From an uncultured Methanosarcinaceae archaeon (GTDB taxonomy: Archaea > Halobacteriota > Methanosarcinia > Methanosarcinales > Methanosarcinaceae), in assembly GCA_963727895.1 (NCBI GenBank), contig CAVSHT010000009.1, positions 224,001-288,000 on the forward strand: DNA of 64,000 nucleotides. The letters are read 5' to 3'. Under the pieces are notes generated by a model. The model was not told the origin of the DNA. It worked only from the letters and a program-made list of their open reading frames with translations, and made no database searches. Shown one piece after another: positions 9,255 through 56,781 of the stretch. The number at the start of each line of letters is the position of its first letter. Position 1 is the stretch's first letter. A program made the position numbers and the translations under genes.

Positions 9255-9704
9255 TCAGTATTTTGCAAGTTCAGGGATCTTCTCAAGAAGCTCATTCTTG
9301 AGCTCATTGGCTGCGTTATCAAGCATGGAACGTCCCTTTGCAGATACTGTTCTTCCGTCCTTTACTTTTTGCAGGTAACCTGCAGCTTCAAGCTGCTGTA
9401 CTGCTTTTCGGGCAATCGAACCGCTACCTTTTGCTTTGTGACCTGGCTTTGATCCATTGTCCTTCTTTCCACCATATACCGATCTGAGCCTTTCAATACC
9501 TATAGGTCCATCAGTATAGATTTTCCTCAGGATCGCTGCAGTTCTGATATACCACCAATCATCATTGGTTGGAGGGAGTTCCTTATGGACTCCTGTCTTT
9601 ACGTTCTGTGCCCACTCAGGGGGAACGATATTTTCATTTTCTTCAAGTATGCCTGCAACTTTCTCGATAAACTCCATTGCAGGGACATCAAATACTGTTG
9701 TCAT
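9255..9704 (-). CDS. rps19e: 30S ribosomal protein S19e
   Basis: [29 protein letters not shown]...[14 protein letters not shown]. Confidence 0.98.
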
Positions 9705-9990
9705 ACTCTCCACCTTTTCTAAATTAGGTTATCTTTGCAGATCCTGAGAGAAAGTGCCGATTCTTCTCCCGGGCTGCCAAAAATTTATTTTTCCCGAAAC
9801 GAGGTAACTCTTTCTCTTTCGAGAGGTCCTTTCCGATCTTTATAGCTGGATTTGCGAACTCTTATGGTTTGGGCTTTCATGCCCGATAAGCCGGTAAACG
9901 TGATTTTAGTTTTAACTGGAAGGAGGTTGATGTATTTATCAATTACTGTGTTTGATAAAATCATATACAATCGATCAAGTGATTTATAGG

Positions 9991-10190
9991 ATGAAAAACT
10001 TCAAACTGAAAAACGATCTAATTGTATTGAATTGGCTCTTGTCAATTGACGCAAGTACCAACACTGAGCGTAATTACTTTCAAGCTATAAAAGCATTTTG
10101 CGAATTCACAAAGAACGTCAGTTGAACTTATTCGGGAAGCTGAAAATAAAAGAAAAGCTGGTCTATGTATGAGAAGTGTATTAGAATAGA
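9991..10190 (+). pseudogene. N-terminal remnant of a Methanosarcina-type site-specific (tyrosine) integrase
   Basis: manual translation MKNFKLKNDLIVLNWLLSIDASTNTERNYFQAIKAFCEFTK, then shifted VELIREAE..KAGLCMR; resembles the N-terminus of methanosarcinal integrases; truncated just before IS110. Confidence 0.55.
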
Positions 10191-10275
10191 TTTCATTATT
10201 TTCACAGTAAAAATATCATATTTCAGAATATTTCATGCTATCAATTTAGCATGAAAGTACATGAGGAAATTATCC

Positions 10276-11540
10276 TCACGTGCTCTCTTGATCCTTTTTC
10301 CCCATAATCGCAAATATTCCACTAATTATTTTAATCAGTTCATCAACCGAAAAAATCTCAGTTTCAATAATCTTTCTCTTTTGGATTTCTCCCTTTTGAT
10401 ATCCGGTTTCATCTTCGTCCATCTCATCGTTTGTAATAAGATGCCATAATATCGTTGCAATTTTCCTTGCTAAGGCAATAATTGCTTTTGCATGTCCAAT
10501 CGACTTCTTTTTTCTGTTAAAAAACTATTTTAACCTGCTATTCTTCTTTCTTGCTGCTGCTTGAGCAATCTGTGTCAGAATCCACCTTGCTACTTTTGAT
10601 TCCCTCTTTGTGATTCTGCCGTTATAGTATTTATCTGCAGATTGATACACATTAAGAACTAGACCAAGCCAAGAAGCAAGCTTATTTCCAGAAGAAAAAT
10701 CCTTAAAGTTGCCTATTTCAGCAAGTAAAATTGCCGCACCAAGTTTCCCTATACCTGGAACTGACATTAAAATCTCCATTTCTCGCTTATGATTTCGAGA
10801 AGCATAATTGAAAATTTCTTTTTCTAAAGCTTCGAGTTCATCATCAAGACTTTTTATGAGTTTCAGACAGATCTGAAGTCTAAATGCAGCACTTTGAGAA
10901 ATTTCTCGATCAAAAATTTCTCTTATCTGAGCAGCTTTTTTCCGAACATTTGGAGAGAGGCTTGCAATAATCTGATCAACACTCTTACCTGAAGAGATTC
11001 CTAATAAGATCATTCTGCCATTCTTGCCAAAAACGTCTGTCAGAACATTATTCAGGTGTAGCATTTCAGATGCAAGAATTGAATTTCAGATGCAAGAATT
11101 GAGTGAGCTTTATTTTTTAAATCTGTTCTTTTTTGTACAAGTGTTAACCGAAGTCGAACATATGATCTAAAATCTATATGATCCTTTGGAAAAACTCTTG
11201 ATGGCTGAATCATATTATTAAGTGCAAGTTGTGCAATGACTTCTGAGTCAATCTTATCTGTTTTTGTATGGGTAAATACCTTCATATCTCGCGCATTTCC
11301 AACTATCACAGTTAGATGCTTTACCAATGAATCATGAATCGGAACCCAAAAGTCGCTGGTTGATTCACATGCAACAACATCACATTTTTCTGATATTACC
11401 CAATTTTTAAGGGCTAAAATTCCTTCATCATCTCTGTTGAAACGTTGCTGTTGTTTTTCACCAGATATACTGAGAATTGTAGCAATGAAAAAGAGTTTGT
11501 GAATGTCTAAACCACAAGCTTTGTTTATGACTTCAATCAA
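10276..11540 (-). pseudogene. IS110 DEDD recombinase/transposase, disrupted
   Basis: GLDIHK, ACESTS, KTDKID (D-E-D-D), SVPGIG, QSAD, ITKR motifs; 20-bp duplication frameshift at 11063-11102 and TAG at 10525. Confidence 0.93.
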
Positions 11541-11775
11541 ATTAGATCACCAAATTTATTTGGGCAGTGGAATTGCCTAAAAGGCCAATTTAGCATCCGT
11601 GATCAAAGTCACACTTGAGCCTTCGATGGCAATTCACTGATTAGTTTTAGGACGGTTTTGATAAACCAAAATCGAGACAACCTTACTGCCCAAGGTAATG
11701 AGGACTTAATAGTCAAAAAAAAGAACGGAGAGTACTGTCATTAGTTGTGCTTGTTATTCGAAGAAAAGCATGTGC
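11541..11775 (-). ncRNA. candidate bridge/seek RNA in IS110 non-coding end, copy 1
   Basis: outer stem ttgggcagt 11560-68 / actgcccaa 11685-93 encloses two stem-loops with matches to target and donor junctions. Confidence 0.65.
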
Positions 11776-11777
11776 GT

Positions 11778-12273
11778 TGTAGGGGTAAGTCACGTTTCTG
11801 TCCAAAAATGGATAAAGAAATTTGGTAAGGAGTTAGAGGCTCTAAAAAGTGAAAATGAGATATCTATTGTTGAAATGGATGAAATGCACACGTACATCGG
11901 TAACAAAAAAAAATATTGCTGGATCTGGATTGCTGTTGATAGAGTTGGGAAAAAGTTCATCAACTGCTCTTTTGGTAGCAGAGGAACGGAAACTGGAAAA
12001 CTACTCTGGGAAAAAGTGAAGAAAAAAGAGATTGGAGAAGTGATGACAGATCACTGGAGAGCATATGCAGAGTTTATTCCAGAAAAGAGTCATACTCAAT
12101 CCAAAGCAGAAACATTTACAGTTGAGGGATATAACAGCATATTGAGGCATTTCCTGGTAGATTGAGAAGAAAAACAAAGTGTTATACAAAAAGTCTTGAA
12201 ATGCTAAAGTACTCGGTTATTCTATTGATGAAATACAGAAATAAAGAACTAGATATAGTTAAGTAACAATGCC
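11778..12273 (+). mobile_element. IS1-family element, right part only
   Basis: GVSHVSVQKWIKK, EMDEMHTYIGNKK, TDHWRAY, VEGYNS; right end taacaatgcc; left part missing beyond IS110. Confidence 0.92.
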
Positions 12274-12649
12274 AATTTACCTTCTGAGAAATCAAGCTGT
12301 AAATTTCAATATTTAATTATTGAATATATTTATAGTTTTATTTTTTGAGAATTGCAAGATCTGTTATAATAGAAAGAGTGAAAATAGTATAGATTATTTT
12401 ATATAAATTTTAATATATACAATTTTTATTATATATAATGTCATTATATAGATAGAAGGATTTATGTAATATAGCGTTTTCAACTATTTTTCATTACAGA
12501 TTAAACATTAATTTACTGAGGTACTACGCACTAGAGAAAATAAGGAGTTAACGTACTTTATGCACGCAACTACCTTTATAGTAACACACCGAGAGTGCCT
12601 TGACCACGGTACCGCCTGAAGAACAACAAATCGAAAAAGAGGCATACCA

Positions 12650-14020
12650 TTGACGAAAGTTGTAGAAATATCTCCAAACACGAGACTTGAAGGTCACTCC
12701 AAACTCACCCTGAAAGTGAATGATGAGGGTATTGTCGAGCGAGGAGACTGGCTCTCTATCACCCCGGTCAGGGGTATTGAAAAGCTCGCCATAGGTAAGA
12801 CAATGGAACAGGTCCCGAAGATTTCCTCTCGGGTCTGTGGTATCTGTCCCATTGCCCACACTCTGGCAAGCACCGAGGCCATGGAAGCTTCAATCGGCTG
12901 CGAAATTCCCACGGATGCAAAGCTCCTGCGGATCATTCTCCATGCCGCAAACCGTATCCATAGCATCGCCCTGCACAACATCTTGATCCTGCCGGACTTT
13001 TACATACCGGGGACAGAGAAAAAATTCAATATGTTCGCAAATGAGCAGCCTGCCAGAAGCGTTATGGCGAGAATTGTCCGCATTCGTGAGATTGGACAGA
13101 CCATTGGAGCCATCGCAGGTGGCGAGGCGATTCATCCTTCCAACCCAAGAATCGGGGGGATGTATCACAACGTAAGTCCACGGGCAAAGCAGAAAATGGC
13201 TGATCTGGCAAAAGAAGGACTTGTCCTTGCCCACGAGCAGATGGATTTCATGCTCGATGTCATCAGGAATATGCAGAACCGAGAATTTGTCGAGGTTGCA
13301 GGCAAGCAGATCCCACTTCCCAAGACACTTGGATACCACAACCAGGGAGTTATGGCTACATCCACGATGTACGGCTCATCCAGTCTGGACGAGAATCCCA
13401 CATGGGACTTCACCAGATGGAAGGAAACCAGACCATGGGACTGGTATATGGGTGAGGTAACGATAGATCTTGAAGATCCAACTTATCCATCAGGAGGTAC
13501 CACAAAAGTCGGGACCAAAGCTAACCCCCAGATGGAAGCCTGCACCGGTGTTCCTACATACGACGGTCAGCCGGTAGAGGTCGGCCCAAGAGCAAGGCTT
13601 TCTGCCTTCAAGAACTTCGACGAAAAAGGAACCTTCGCTCAACACATTGCCAGGCAAATGGAGTATCCCGATTGCTGTTACACCATTTTCAAGTGCCTTG
13701 ACAACTTGAATACCTCAGGGAAGGTCATCGCCGACAACATCCCTCTGGGGGACGGATCCATGGGTTGGGCCGCAAATGAAGCACCGCGTGGAACCAATGT
13801 CCACCTCGCAAGGGTGAAGGACGGAAAAGTGTTGTGGTATGAGATGCTTGTGCCTACGACCTGGAATTTCCCTACCTGTAGCCGTGCTCTGACAGGAGCG
13901 CCCTGGCAGATAGCCGAAATGGTTGTCCGGGCTTATGACCCTTGCGTCTCGTGTGCAACCCACATGATCGTGATGAACGAGGAGAACAAGATAGTCACCC
14001 AGAAGCTTATGCAGTGGTGA
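12650..14020 (+). CDS. frhA: F420-reducing [NiFe] hydrogenase large subunit
   Basis: TRLEGH, RVCGICP and RAYDPCVSCATH Ni-binding motifs plus cleavable C-terminal tail; TTG start. Confidence 0.97.
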   Translation: MTKVVEISPNTRLEGHSKLTLKVNDEGIVERGDWLSITPVRGIEKLAIGKTMEQVPKISSRVCGICPIAHTLASTEAMEASIGCEIPTDAKLLRIILHAANRIHSIALHNILILPDFYIPGTEKKFNMFANEQPARSVMARIVRIREIGQTIGAIAGGEAIHPSNPRIGGMYHNVSPRAKQKMADLAKEGLVLAHEQMDFMLDVIRNMQNREFVEVAGKQIPLPKTLGYHNQGVMATSTMYGSSSLDENPTWDFTRWKETRPWDWYMGEVTIDLEDPTYPSGGTTKVGTKANPQMEACTGVPTYDGQPVEVGPRARLSAFKNFDEKGTFAQHIARQMEYPDCCYTIFKCLDNLNTSGKVIADNIPLGDGSMGWAANEAPRGTNVHLARVKDGKVLWYEMLVPTTWNFPTCSRALTGAPWQIAEMVVRAYDPCVSCATHMIVMNEENKIVTQKLMQW

Positions 14021-14024
14021 AGAA

Positions 14025-14504
14025 ATGGAAACGCTGTACTCCGAGATCGTAGTGGCAGGCTGCGGCAACCCTCTATATGCTGACGATGGGTTTGGACCCG
14101 CAGTAGTGGAGAAACTTAAAGACCTCAAAATTCCAGAAAAAGTCACAGTCGTTGACGCGGGACTTGGAGGTCCACATTTTATATTTACACTCCTCAACCC
14201 TGAGTCTACAAAGACCCTTATAATCGTGGATATTGCGGACTTTGGAGGGAAACCCGGCGAGCTCAGATGGCTCTCCGTTGACGAGCTTCCTGTAGGGAGC
14301 TACCGGGACGCCCACTCCTGGGATCTTACCGAACCTCTCCAGTATATCAAGAATGATATACGGATCAGAGTTCTTGCATGCCAGAAGAAGTATGTCTCTG
14401 CCCCTAATATGGTCATTGGGATTACAGACGAAGTACAGAGAGCCATTCCAGAAGCTGTATCTGAGATACTGAAAGAAATTGGGATGAACTATGGGACTGC
14501 TTAA
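14025..14504 (+). CDS. frhD: hydrogenase maturation protease
   Basis: GCGNPLYADDGFG, VDAG, DAH motifs; operon position. Confidence 0.96.
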   Translation: METLYSEIVVAGCGNPLYADDGFGPAVVEKLKDLKIPEKVTVVDAGLGGPHFIFTLLNPESTKTLIIVDIADFGGKPGELRWLSVDELPVGSYRDAHSWDLTEPLQYIKNDIRIRVLACQKKYVSAPNMVIGITDEVQRAIPEAVSEILKEIGMNYGTA

Positions 14505-15369
14505 CTTCATCAAGAAAACTATGAGTGTGGAAACTAGGCCCTCTCAGGTTACGATGGAGAAGGTGGAAGCTACAAAGGAGACAAAACCAGTGACAAATAA
14601 GATCAAGCTCGGACACGTACACATGAGCGGCTGTACAGGTTGTCTTGTGTCCATAGCCGACAACAACTTAGGACTCATCAAGATCCTGGATGACTATGCC
14701 GACCTCGTCTACTGTCTCACACTCGCAGACGTTCGACATATCCCAGAAATGGATGTGGCACTCGTCGAAGGATCAGTATGCATTCAAGATCATGAATCAG
14801 TAGAAGATATCAAAGAGGCTCGGAAAAAAGCCAAGATCGTGGTAGCCCTTGGATCCTGCGCGTGCTATGGGAATATCACCCGGTTTAGCCGCGGTGGACA
14901 GCACAACCAGCCACAGCACGAGTCTTTCCTCCCAATTGGGGATATTATCGACGTAGACATTTACATTCCCGGATGCCCTCCAAGCCCGGAGCTCATAAGG
15001 AACGTTGCTGTTATGGCATACCTGCTCCTGGAAGGAAACGATGACCAAAAAGCCCTTGCAGGCAAGTACTTAAAGCCTCTAATGGATCTTGCGAAGCGCG
15101 GCACGTTTGGATGTTTCTGCGACCTGATGTATGACGTGATTAACCAGGGCCTCTGTATGGGCTGCGGCACCTGCGCTGCATCCTGTCCAGTACATGCGAT
15201 CACCCTCGAGTTCGGGAAACCGCAGGGTGAGCGTGACCTCTGCATTAAGTGCGGTTCCTGCTACGGTGCATGTCCAAGATCGTTCTTCAATTTAGACGTG
15301 ATTCCTGAATTTGAGAACATCAGTGAAATAATCGCTGGAGCGCTTAAGGAAGGTGAGAGTGATGATTGA
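14491..15369 (+). CDS. frhG: F420-reducing hydrogenase gamma (small, FeS) subunit
   Basis: GCTGC, GSCACYG, IPGCPP and two ferredoxin CxxCxxCxxxCP motifs. Confidence 0.97.
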   Translation: MGLLNFIKKTMSVETRPSQVTMEKVEATKETKPVTNKIKLGHVHMSGCTGCLVSIADNNLGLIKILDDYADLVYCLTLADVRHIPEMDVALVEGSVCIQDHESVEDIKEARKKAKIVVALGSCACYGNITRFSRGGQHNQPQHESFLPIGDIIDVDIYIPGCPPSPELIRNVAVMAYLLLEGNDDQKALAGKYLKPLMDLAKRGTFGCFCDLMYDVINQGLCMGCGTCAASCPVHAITLEFGKPQGERDLCIKCGSCYGACPRSFFNLDVIPEFENISEIIAGALKEGESDD

Positions 15370-16237
15370 AGATCCGTATCTCGGCAAATACATTACCTGT
15401 GTTTCGGCACGAAGCACGGATAAGGAGATTCTCAAGAAGGCACAGGACGGCGGCATCGCCACCACCCTTATGACATATGCTCTTGAAGAAGGGATTATTG
15501 ACGGGACAATTGTGGCAGGAGAGGGCGAGAAACCCTGGCAGCCAAAGCCAATAGTTGCAACAAGCCGCGAGGAAATTCTCGAGGCAAGAGGAACTAGATA
15601 CAGCATCAGCCCTCAGATTTCCGGGCTCAAGGAAGCAACCCGTTCATATGGCCTTGATAAAGTTGGAGTTACCGGCGTCTGCTGTCAGATGCAGGCAGTG
15701 AGAAAAGCTCAGCTCTATCCGATCAACATGCGAGATGTCCCAGGTAAGGTTGCACTTACAGTAGGGCTTTTCTGTATGGAGAATTTCCCGTACAAGTCCA
15801 TGCAGAGCATTGTTGAAGACCATGCAGCACAAAGCCTGGGTTCAGTAAAGAAAATGGAGATCACAAAAGGCAAGTTCTGGGTCTACACTGAACGCGGAAA
15901 CGTCGCTACTGTGCCTCTTAAGGATACACACAAGTACGAACAGCCCGGCTGCCACGTCTGCCTCGACTATGTTTCAAACCTCGCAGATATCTCTACCGGC
16001 TCAGTCGGTAGCCCAGACGGCTGGTCAACAGTTTTCATCCGCACCAAGGTTGGAAACGAAATCTGGTCCAAGGCTGTAGCTGCAGGTTTGTTCGAGACAA
16101 AGCCTATCGAGGATGTAAAACCTGGTCTCGATCTCCTCAGAAAGCTCGCAAAAGAGAAGATAGAAAAGAACCAGAAGACAGTTGAGGAGCGCAAGACCTT
16201 CGGCGTCAACAAAGCGCTGCGAAACCCTTACGCCTAA
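15362..16237 (+). CDS. frhB: F420-reducing hydrogenase beta subunit
   Basis: AQDGGIAT, GVCCQ, GLFCMENF, GCHVCLD, ADISTGSVGSPDGWS. Confidence 0.97.
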   Translation: MIEDPYLGKYITCVSARSTDKEILKKAQDGGIATTLMTYALEEGIIDGTIVAGEGEKPWQPKPIVATSREEILEARGTRYSISPQISGLKEATRSYGLDKVGVTGVCCQMQAVRKAQLYPINMRDVPGKVALTVGLFCMENFPYKSMQSIVEDHAAQSLGSVKKMEITKGKFWVYTERGNVATVPLKDTHKYEQPGCHVCLDYVSNLADISTGSVGSPDGWSTVFIRTKVGNEIWSKAVAAGLFETKPIEDVKPGLDLLRKLAKEKIEKNQKTVEERKTFGVNKALRNPYA

Positions 16238-54292: not shown

Positions 54293-54566
54293 GGCATTGG
54301 TAAACAAAAATAGTTATATACTATTAGAAAGTATATTTCTTCATGAACTGCCCAAAATGTAATAGTTCTAATCACAAAAATAATGGTATAGTTGGCGGGC
54401 GTCAACGCTACAAATGCCATGATTGTGGATATAACTATACAGTAGAGCTAAAATCAACTGCTTTTTCCGCTTCTGTAAAAAGACAGGCTTTACAACTCTA
54501 TCTTGAAGGATTGGGCTTTCGCTCAATAGGACGATTTTAGCATGAAAGTACATGAGGAGATTATCC

Positions 54567-55831
54567 TCACGTGCTCTCTTGATCCTTTTTCCCCATAATC
54601 GCAAATATTTCACTAATTATTTTAATCCGTTCATCAACCGAAAAAATCTCAGTCTCAATAATCTTTCTCTTTTGGATTTCTCCCTTTTGATATCCGGTTT
54701 CATCTTCGTCCATCTCATCGTTTGTAATAAGATGCCATAGTATCGTTGCAATTTTCCTTGCTAAGGCAATAATTGCTTTTGCATGTCCAATCGACTTCTT
54801 TTTTCTGTTAAAAAACTCTTTTAACCTGCTATTCTTCTTTCTTGCTGCTGCTTGAGCAATCTGTGTCAGAATCCACCTTGCTACTTTTGATCCCCTCTTT
54901 GTGATTCTGCCGTTATAGTATTTATCTGCAGATTGATACACATTAGGAACTAGACCAAGCCAAGAAGCAAGCTTATTTCCAGAAGAAAAATCCTTAAAGT
55001 TGCCTATTTCAGCAAGTAAAATTGCCGCACCAAGTTCCCCTATACTTGGAACTGACATTAAAATCTCCATTTCTCGCTTATGATTTCGAGAAGCATAATT
55101 GAAAATTTCTGTTTCTAAAGCTTCGAGTTCATCATCAAGACTTTTTATGAGTTTCAGACAGATCTGAAGTCTGAATGCAGCACTTTGAGAAATTTCTCGA
55201 TCAAGAATTTCTCTTATCTGAGCAGCTTTTTTCCGAACATTTGGAGAGAGGCTTGCAATAATCTGATCAACACTCTTACCTGAAGAGATTCCTAATAAGA
55301 TCATTCTGCCATTCTTGCCAAAAACGTCTGTCAGCACATTATTCAGGTGTAGCATTTCAGATGCAAGAATTGAATTTCAGATGCAAGAATTGAGTGAGCT
55401 TTATTTTTTAAATCTGTTCTTTTTTGTACAAGTGTTAACCGAAGTCGAACATATGATCTAAAATCTATATGATCCTTTGGAAAAACTCTTGATGGCTGAA
55501 TCATATTATTAAGTGCAAGTTGTGCAATGACTTCTGAGTCAATCTTATATGTTTTTGTATGGGTAAATACCTTCATATCTCGCGCATTTCCAACTATCAC
55601 AGTTAGATGCTTTACCAATGAATCATGAATCGGAACCCGAAAGTAGCTGGTTGATTCATATGCAACAACATCACATTTTTCTGATATTACCCAATTTTTA
55701 AGGGCTAAAATTCCTTCATCATCTCTGTTGAAACGTTGCTGTTGTTTTTCACCAGATCTACTGAAAATTGTAGCAATGAAAAAGAGTTTGTGAATGTCTA
55801 AACCACAAGCTTTGTTTATGACTTAAATCAA
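54567..55831 (-). pseudogene. IS110 transposase, disrupted
   Basis: same 20-bp duplication (55354-55393), early stop codons, KTDKID changed to KTYKID. Confidence 0.92.
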
Positions 55832-56066
55832 ATTAGATCACCAAATTTATTTGGGCAGTGGAATTGCCTAAAAGGCCAATTTAGCATCCGTGATCAAAGT
55901 CACACTTGAGCCTTCGATGGCAATTCACTGATTAGTTTTAGAACGGTTTTGAATAACCAAAATCAAGACAACCTTACTGCCCAAGGTAATGAGGGCTTAA
56001 TAGTCCAAAAAAAGAACGGAGAGTACTTTCATTAGTTGTGCTTGTTATTCGAAGAAAAGCATGTGC
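55832..56066 (-). ncRNA. candidate bridge/seek RNA, copy 2
   Basis: same stems as 11541-11775 with a few substitutions. Confidence 0.62.
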
Positions 56067-56781
56067 GTTTTAGGGGTAAGTCATGTTTCTGTCCAAAAAT
56101 GGATAAAGAAATTTGGTCAGGAGTTAGAGAACCTAAAAAGTGAAAGTGAGATATCTATTGTTGAAATGGATGAAATGCACACTTACATCGGTAACAAAAA
56201 AAATATTGCTGGATCTAGATTGCTGTTGATAGAGTTGGGAAAAAGTTCATCAACTGCTCTTTTGGCAGCAGAGGAACGGAAACTGGAAAACTGCTCTGGG
56301 AAAAAGTGAAGAAAAAAGAGATTGGAGAAGTGATGACAGATCACTGGAGAGCATATGCAGAGTTTCGTCCAGAAAAGATCCATACTCAATCAAAAGCAGA
56401 AACGTATACTGTTGAAGGATATAACAGCATATTGAGGCACTTTTTGGCAAGGTTGAGAAGAAATACAAAGTGTTATACGAAAAGTATTGAAATGCTAAAG
56501 TACTCGGTTATTCTATTGATGAAATACAAAAATAAAGAGTTAATTATGTTTAGTTAACAATACCGATAATTATTCAGAATAGTAAGAAAGATCCCGAAGG
56601 TGCTGTATCTACTGTATCCCCCAATACAGTCTCTTCGAAATATTATGCTTCCCCAAACATACTAATTCGAAGAAGGATCAGCGACCTCCAAGAGATTCTT
56701 TTATTTCGGTGGTATCCCGTGATACCCTACTTTACTTATTTCCCAACTCCAGCATATACTAAAAACGTAAATTATTTTAAA

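Follow-up and report, generated by a model that had tools for sequence, protein, structure and literature searches.

A candidate bridge RNA in the left end of a Methanosarcina-type IS110-family element, with target guides that match IS1

An IS110-family element and its transposase

The window analysed here, a 64,000-nucleotide stretch of DNA from an uncultured Methanosarcinaceae archaeon (GenBank assembly GCA_963727895.1, contig CAVSHT010000009.1), holds on its minus strand an IS110-family element (copy 1, 10245–11779), whose long non-coding left end contains a candidate bridge RNA, also called a seek RNA. The genome that hosts the window amounts to 3.67 Mb in 19 contigs, and the named relatives closest at the IS110 locus are Methanosarcina species. 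The element is 1.53 kb long and present in about 24 copies: a 301-nt query around the RNA returned 34 matches in the genome, 24 of which span at least 247 nt (22 at 94% identity or more and two at 81%). BLAST searches with 9900–11900 bounded every copy at ~10245 and ~11783, and on the plus strand all copies start with TTTAGCATGAAAG and finish with CATGTGCGTTTTAG. The left (5′) non-coding end (11541–11779, minus strand; ~240 nt) lies upstream of the TTG start codon of the transposase gene at 11540, and the right end is short (~120 nt). The second copy in the window (copy 2, 54536–56073, minus strand), with its RNA at 55844–55989, has IS1 on both sides, and copy 1 adjoins a fragment of an IS1-family element (11780–12270, plus strand; PF03400; end coordinate approximate) that supplies the left half of its target site.

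The transposase gene of copy 1 (10525–11540, minus strand) is broken into two open reading frames (ORFs; 11540–11052 and 11064–10525) and ends prematurely, its frame being split by a 20-bp tandem duplication at 11065–11104, 20 bases of which are not present in related organisms. By exact match, 12 of 23 copies hold two or more duplication units, and one copy has four; the ORF restart is the same in 17 of the 23, and the full 392-codon frame is kept in one. This shared break fits two accounts: broken copies may have spread with help in trans, or gene conversion may have made the copies alike. An intact gene for a 390-aa transposase survives in one sister copy (L017:369–1541); the family matches in Pfam are DEDD_Tnp_IS110 (PF01548) together with Transposase_20 (PF02371), the intact sister protein reaches 261 bits (cut-off 140) against NF033542, the model named "IS110 family RNA-guided transposase", and a serine aligns with Ser241 of IS621 (residue number as counted on that alignment).

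Junctions, core and subterminal repeats

We called the boundaries and the core from about 24 element copies and 238 IS1 sites. Both junctions of all copies together give a circle junction of CATGTGCG-TTT-AGCATG on the plus strand with a 3-nt core; in the sense of the element, the target reads CCCCTA-AAA-(A/C)TC.. and the donor CATGCT-AAA-CGCAC. Occupied IS1 sites are always one T short at the left junction and show four on the right, counts that fit only a CATGTGCG-TTT-AGCATG donor recombining at the 3-nt core, so that the element including both cores extends over 10245–11779. The core of copy 1 is TTT at 10245–10247 and is mutated to TTG at 11777–11779. A subterminal inverted repeat of 10–13 bp, with at most one mismatch, was present in all 36 distinct elements examined; its left copy in the window (11732–11742, minus strand; AAUGACAGUAC in element sense) lies ~34 nt inside the left tip and its right copy (10250–10260, minus strand) 2–3 nt inside the right tip, and lineage-specific variants include ATGAAAGTAC, ATGAAAGTCC and ATGAAAAAC. 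Abutting the right end of copy 1, at 10226–10244, stands an inverted right-end tip (TTTCATGCTA) that makes a near-palindrome over the junction; it could be either a chance match or the trace of recombination with another right end.

A covarying two-module RNA fold

Folding of the minus strand at 11560–11693 gave a core of ~134 nt in which a 9-bp outer helix, P1 (11685–11693 paired with 11560–11568), surrounds two binding modules; each combines a stem with an internal loop and a hairpin. A reading of the letters alone (hereinafter the sequence-only reading) had placed an outer stem around two stem-loops in the non-coding end, and this stem is P1. The target-binding module comes first and carries the hairpin P3 (11654–11667, minus strand; GGUUU AUCA AAACC), one pair of which occurs as the UA, GC and CG types. 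The donor-binding module (11570–11635, minus strand) consists of helices P4 and P5, an internal loop and hairpin P6, with 92%, 92% and 100% of cells paired, respectively, and compensatory changes in each helix.

The fold was examined as a six-helix structure on an alignment of 25 sequences, comprising both window copies and relatives down to 41% protein identity. Across its 39 pairs, 89% of the cells are paired, some of the unpaired ones in helices 1 and 3 being explained by a one-column misalignment of the most distant sequences. Thirteen of the 39 pairs are changed on both sides, a number equalled in one of 500 shuffles; the covariation score is 0.170, as against 0.106 in shuffles (reached by 0/500), and all six slid controls score lower. 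The RNA strand follows from G:U pairs that are near-invariant (GU in 24/25 sequences at columns 22/63 and UG in 25/25 at columns 93/109): they would read A·C on the opposite strand, and the RNA is thus in the sense of the transposase. The scaffold is conserved from Methanosarcina to Methanospirillum, Methanoculleus and Methanoperedens (41–55% protein identity), and in alignments of the left ends the hypervariable blocks within this otherwise near-constant scaffold are exactly the two sides of the internal loop of the target-binding module (loop 1).

The comparison of homologous ends proposed by the sequence-only reading thus gives 13 pairs with compensatory changes, and a covariance model built here (R1) recovers relatives. 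R1 found 20 copies in the window genome, and among 150 other genomes sampled over the phylum it finds the RNA in 10, in seven of 62 genera. Among bacterial relatives, the best plasmid match (Caballeronia, 33% identity) gave no hit to R1 in its flanks.

Three further observations concern the RNA and its surroundings. The relative L038 (G114) carries a ~90-nt insert in the terminal hairpin loop of loop 1, the remaining RNA being conserved; large insertions seem to be tolerated in the apical hairpin of this target-binding module. A T-run/TATTAA motif was seen by eye ~20–30 nt upstream of P1. Outside the element, at 9509–9569 (minus strand), lies a weak match resembling a C/D-box sRNA (Rfam sR1, 16.6 bits, E = 0.43, gathering score 45) with UGAUGA and CUGA box-like motifs.

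Target guides follow the insertion flanks

The two sides of loop 1 carry short blocks that match opposite strands of the target. On the 5′ side (11668–11677, minus strand; UCUCGAUUUU), CGAUUUU complements the core and right target of the top strand and is the equivalent of a right-target guide. On the 3′ side (11644–11652, minus strand; UCCUAAAAC), CCUAAAAC equals left target, core and one further nucleotide of the top strand; being identical to that strand, it pairs with the bottom strand and is the equivalent of a left-target guide. The blocks gttttagg (11644–11651) and aaaatcg (11668–11674), which the sequence-only reading had assigned to the two strands of an IS1 site, do occur on opposite sides of the first internal loop and match the uninterrupted site.

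These blocks change from lineage to lineage. The 3′-side block, the left guide, is CCTAAAAC in the window family; GATAAAAC in G104, G110 and G023, with flanks GATAAAAC, AATAAAAC and TATAAAAC; CAGAAAAC in M. spelaei, with the flank consensus nAGAAAAC over nine copies; TTAAAAAAC in Methanospirillum, a 9/9 match in four of five copies; and CTACGAAAC in Methanoperedens, as against a flank of ATACGAAAC. The right guide matches over 9 nt in G023 (AAAATAAGT) and in L050 (AAATCTAGT), at 9/10 positions in L065 and at 8/9 in L051; in M. spelaei it reads AAAATAAGGA, the flank consensus being AAATAAG. Permutation tests, in which guide families were permuted over unique guide–flank pairs and only variable positions were scored, gave for the left guide and left flank 4.54 of 6 positions observed against 3.08 permuted (22 guides, 44 pairs; 0/20000), and for the right guide and right flank 2.83 of 5 against 1.76 (21 guides, 44 pairs; 0/20000), figures to be read as indicative. 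Distant elements found with R1 obey the same rule, for instance TAGTTAAAC with matches of 9/9 and 8/9 and AAGCAAT on the opposite side, and CCAAGA.TC with 8/9.

In a distant family member, L122 (G183), the element is inserted in an array of short repeats of the GCCAAGA type and both guides match the repeat, so that repeated DNA is targeted there as well. The bottom-strand guides run 1–2 nt past the core into the non-cognate partner in L096 (Methanoperedens) and at window position 11644: the last C of CCUAAAAC is the first left-end base, the left-target guide continuing into left-end bases, and in L096 the left-donor guide runs on into the initial bases of the right flank, with both bottom-strand guides extended by 2 nt. 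This resembles the handshake-like guide extension of IS621, the cases being too few for us to claim it.

IS1 as the target

The targeted IS1-family element is itself well defined, its transposase scoring 149.5 bits on NF033558 (cut-off 100) and matching PF03400 (DDE_Tnp_IS1), and 238 anchor hits to it are spread over the 3.67 Mb. Uninterrupted sites fall into AGGAAGAG-TTTTAG-GGGT (~143 copies; the GAG variant, GGAAGAG) and AGGA(C/A)GAT-TTTTAG-GGGT (~58 copies), and the GAG, GAT and GGT types of site fit the IS110 guides unequally. The site lies inside the IS1 transposase reading frame (..GRFLGVSHVSVQKW..), in the part coding for the helix-turn-helix. The two target guides jointly spell an 11-mer, CCTAAAAATCG, that occurs free 48 times in the genome, 46 times within IS1; because this 11-mer sits in the transposase gene of an IS1 with more than 230 copies, the IS110 element lives mainly inside IS1. 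Script-based sorting of the 24 IS110 copies placed nine with IS1 on both sides, five with IS1 on the right only, four on the left only and six with IS1 on neither side; one copy (C7) was scored "right: other" due to an internal deletion that shifts its right end, and with its IS1-type right flank the both-sides count becomes 10. At least 18 of the 24 copies thus adjoin IS1.

Occupancy of the site types differs as well: GAT-type sites, which fit the 5′ guide CGAUUUU, are occupied in 12/75 cases as against 3/146 for GAG-type sites (Fisher p = 2e-4). The six left flanks that are not IS1 match CCTAAAAC at 8/8 positions in five cases and at 7/8 in one. The occupancy, free-site and adjacency counts support the proposal, first made in the sequence-only reading, that the element would be programmed against IS1. 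The RNA of copy 2 has a C>U change at one position in each target guide, common to three further copies, and each change turns a G:C pair into G:U, as the sequence-only reading had noted; the RNA of copy 1 does not depart from the majority in any of the three guide blocks or in any helix. Nine copies, copy 1 among them, have IS1 on one side only, with non-IS1 left flanks still matching the left guide. Such copies may have been rearranged when IS110 copies recombined with each other, or may stem from half-site recombination of the kind reported in a preprint (bioRxiv 10.64898/2026.08.31.748434).

A donor guide follows the right end of the element

The internal loop of the donor-binding module (loop 2) carries on its 3′ side (11589–11596, minus strand) AUGCUAAA, which equals the right-end tip plus the core and is the equivalent of a left-donor guide. 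The same block, tttagcat, had been taken for a match to a predicted circular junction, with which the junction deduced from all copies agrees. The donor guide tracks the right-end tip of its own element (5.35 of 6 positions observed, 3.72 permuted; 13 guides, 16 unique pairs; 0/20000) through variants that include GCTAAA, GCCAAA, GTTAAA, GGAAAA, AGAAAA, AGGAAG and AGTAAA, and in the distant elements found with R1 new donor-guide variants match their own right ends. The division into a target loop and a donor loop, which the sequence-only reading had carried over from known IS110 recombinases, is thereby supported by guide covariation in each of the two loops.

On the 5′ side of loop 2 and the start of hairpin P6 (11610–11617, minus strand), CAAGUGUG (cacacttg) had been proposed as a guide for the other donor arm. 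Its letters are there and pair at 7/8 positions in copy 1; it does not track changes of the right donor in relatives, and its single seemingly covarying position holds in four lineages and fails in at least seven. We also scanned each RNA column against the first 12–14 left-end positions, for complementarity and for identity, and the scan gave clade-level correlations only. With that position failing in at least seven lineages and no tracking column found in the scan, the proposed right-donor guide stays without support, and we rejected CAAGUGUG as a demonstrated one.

A candidate bridge RNA and the alternatives to it

From these comparisons we conclude that the left non-coding end very probably encodes a bridge (seek) RNA, in transposase sense, of a Methanosarcina-type IS110-family element. 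Homology with IS621 and IS1111-type elements suggests how the observed parts (the element boundaries and core, the covarying fold with its strand, and the guides that covary with flanks and element end) would work together, and it is from this homology that we infer transcription, an RNA–protein complex, the circle and the chemistry. The DEDD/serine recombinase would excise the element as a circle with the right-end/left-end junction CATGCU-AAA-CGCACAUG, the first RNA module would bind the target, and recombination at the shared AAA core would insert the element.

Several points weigh against this conclusion. The related sequences behind the permutation tests are non-independent, and the resulting figures overstate significance. 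The right-target signal is short (the A-run plus 1–5 nt), with three of five Methanospirillum copies matching AAAATT only, and L049, L061 and L071 fit their own guides poorly (in L071, the right guide and the donor guide). No RNA alignment column was seen to track the variable left-end positions, and the scan yielded no right-donor guide. Rfam 15 has no match in 11541–11779 (scan of 9500–13000, E ≤ 10), the only hits in the scanned region being three sub-threshold C/D-box matches, all outside the non-coding end. In the window copy itself, the transposase is broken, the left-junction core is mutated and the right flank is not IS1. Finally, in RNA libraries of related organisms (four runs, 80% likeness), assembled contigs cover 10813–11701, and such contigs, coming from related organisms only, cannot show transcript ends, strand or level. 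The right-end/left-end joint is not listed among these contigs, which is uninformative since contigs drop rare forms. One RNA-library contig of a related organism, 1540 nt long, runs through flank, left end and RNA into the transposase gene, of which it covers the first half, at a mean depth of 3493, as against ~100–700 for neighbouring contigs; its unaligned end resembles the left end in G118, whose element copies, among the matches listed, carry internal stop codons.

For a single copy, chance is a real competitor, and this is where the view that the fold merely forms a 5′ leader or a regulatory element in the transposase mRNA, with loop–flank matches arising by chance in AT-rich DNA, finds its footing. 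In 5000 dinucleotide shuffles of the non-coding end, matches of at least 7 nt to both target strands arose in 379 and a donor match of at least 8 nt in 531; matches of at least 7 nt to either target strand arose in 2345, and all three matches jointly in 42. The RNA, moreover, stops ~20 nt before the start codon, beside a GGUGAU motif resembling a ribosome-binding site. Because 42/5000 shuffles equal it, the single-copy evidence is only modest; what makes the case strong is covariation in relatives. The refutation that the sequence-only reading had named, equally good matches in shuffled AT-rich controls, accordingly half holds for one copy taken alone, and the comparative data decide otherwise. 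The leader-only view is contradicted by the guide–flank covariation: the loops change together with their flanks, through more than 20 guide variants and in several archaeal families, and it is precisely the internal-loop sides of an otherwise conserved scaffold that hold the hypervariable blocks. We therefore consider it very improbable that the region is nothing else than a leader; a leader role may be a second function of the RNA.

A different objection grants the bridge RNA at the level of the family and holds that the window copy is an inert relic, immobile and with its RNA unused. The transposase frame broken by the tandem duplication and ending early, the left-junction core that reads TTGTAG instead of TTTTAG, the right flank outside IS1 and the survival of a full frame in only one of 23 copies all speak for this. 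The copy-1 RNA is, however, identical to the majority at guides and helices, and the ORF break common to 17 of 23 copies fits a spread of the broken form helped in trans, a pattern that gene conversion would produce equally; a bridge RNA could, in principle, also act on any circle with the same ends. On balance, we doubt that the copy is such a relic, while giving the idea appreciable weight.

Placement relative to IS110 and IS1111 systems

The published systems are compared here as the accessible parts of their sources describe them. In IS621, the left-target guide is 5′ and pairs with the bottom strand, and the right-target guide is 3′ and pairs with the top strand (PMC11208160; PMC11208158). 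The methanogen element resembles it in several respects: its RNA is encoded in a long non-coding left end, upstream of the gene for a DEDD/Ser recombinase; its two modules of stem, internal loop and hairpin are for target and donor, in that order; and its left guide reads the bottom strand and its right guide the top strand, both taking in the core and the left one being the longer. It differs in guide order: the top-strand (right) guide lies on the 5′ side of the target loop and the bottom-strand (left) guide on the 3′ side, where the left-donor guide also lies in its own loop, an order reversed relative to IS621 in all aligned sequences. Unlike IS621, it also has an outer 9-bp helix around both modules, with no separate 5′ stem-loop in the structure used here, a core of AAA rather than CT, no right-donor guide found, a 10–13-bp subterminal inverted repeat and an archaeal host. 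At the protein level, it resembles IS621 in the C-terminal domain only (E = 3.6e-9).

In IS1111-type elements, the seekRNA is encoded downstream of the transposase gene, and its top-strand complement precedes its bottom-strand match; in the IS110-type ISEc21, the RNA lies upstream and the order is reversed (PMC11187229). Like those of the IS1111 members ISEc11, ISKpn4, ISPa11 and ISPst6 (PMC11187229), the methanogen RNA has the top-strand complement 5′ of the bottom-strand match, and it shares with them subterminal inverted repeats, natural reprogramming among close relatives and targets in repeated or mobile DNA; theirs, however, lies downstream in a long right end, and the methanogen RNA upstream in the left end. 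With ISEc21 (PMC11187229), it shares the position upstream of the transposase gene and the short matches to both target strands, and it differs in having the top-strand complement first where ISEc21 has the bottom-strand match first.

These likenesses raise the alternative that the RNA belongs to the IS1111 (seekRNA) branch, either as a member with an RNA upstream of its transposase gene or as a lineage that split off before the RNA changed ends. The guide order that Siddiquee et al. (PMC11187229) give for IS1111-type elements, the reverse being given for the IS110 type, points in this direction, as does the subterminal inverted repeat, such repeats being 7–17 bp in IS1111 and 2–3 bp in IS110 according to Durrant et al. 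(PMC11208160). On the other side, an RNA in a long left end with a short right end is the IS110-group pattern, and the second loop is a simple internal one, not the multi-loop reported for many IS1111 members; the plasmid records, which say only "IS110 family", are too coarse to assign the protein to either group. We regard IS1111 membership as a genuine minority option, leaning against it. Since one defining feature of each subgroup fails, we file the element under the general IS110-family bridge/seek RNA, as a variant. Tentatively, and with the odds rather against it, the methanogen clade may be a mosaic or intermediate of IS110 and IS1111, in which the recombinase would read the right donor arm through the asymmetric repeat and not through RNA.

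Bridge RNAs are now known to be general among IS110-family elements, and a comparable preference for other mobile elements has reportedly been seen before: IS4321 and IS5075 are said, in work by Partridge and Hall from 2003, to insert into the terminal repeats of Tn21-family transposons. Like the methanogen element, they belong to the IS110/IS1111 family and have another mobile element as their specific target; unlike it, they are bacterial and target a terminal inverted repeat, whereas the site here is inside the IS1 transposase gene.

IS110 recombinases of methanogens and other archaea are themselves on record, as in the ISfinder elements ISMac14, ISMba7, ISMba20 and ISMma5 in the supplementary table of Durrant et al.; a cluster representative printed in that supplement seems, by eye, to be related to the protein studied here, at roughly 35–40% identity. 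Vaysset et al. count 662 archaeal IS110 recombinase homologues (bioRxiv 10.1101/2024.06.21.599552), and the 86 models of a 2026 preprint yield 32,190 predicted bridge RNAs (bioRxiv 10.64898/2026.10.21.760802). In the accessible parts of this literature, no archaeal bridge RNA and no such layout is described, nor any guide or target for the archaeal elements just named; Supplementary Table 5 of Durrant et al. and the supplements of the 2026 preprint may list it.

Elsewhere in the window, four successive ORFs at 12650–16237 (plus strand; 456, 159, 292 and 294 aa) resemble a methanogen hydrogenase operon, as judged from their translations.

Implications

In the literature covered, RNA-guided recombination has been experimentally shown for bacterial elements only, and the data presented here add comparison-based support for it in several methanogen families, with many natural reprogramming events across methanogenic archaea. 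The combination of features matches neither described subgroup and bears on how the subgroups are related and how the scaffold can be rearranged. If the methanogen clade is indeed a mosaic, it would record a state before, or just after, the RNA moved between the element ends, and it would mean that the guide order on the loop sides can be swapped without altering the strands that are read. The element also offers archaeal material for the link between IS110 recombinases and Nop5/C-D-box RNPs (ribonucleoproteins) proposed in the accessible part of the Vaysset et al. preprint (bioRxiv 10.1101/2024.06.21.599552). As a possible tool, the compact pair of a 390-aa enzyme and a ~135-nt RNA, native to mesophilic Methanosarcina, could serve methanogen genetics. 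Within this genome, one insertion sequence takes the transposase gene of another, the hugely amplified IS1 with its more than 230 copies, as its landing pad.

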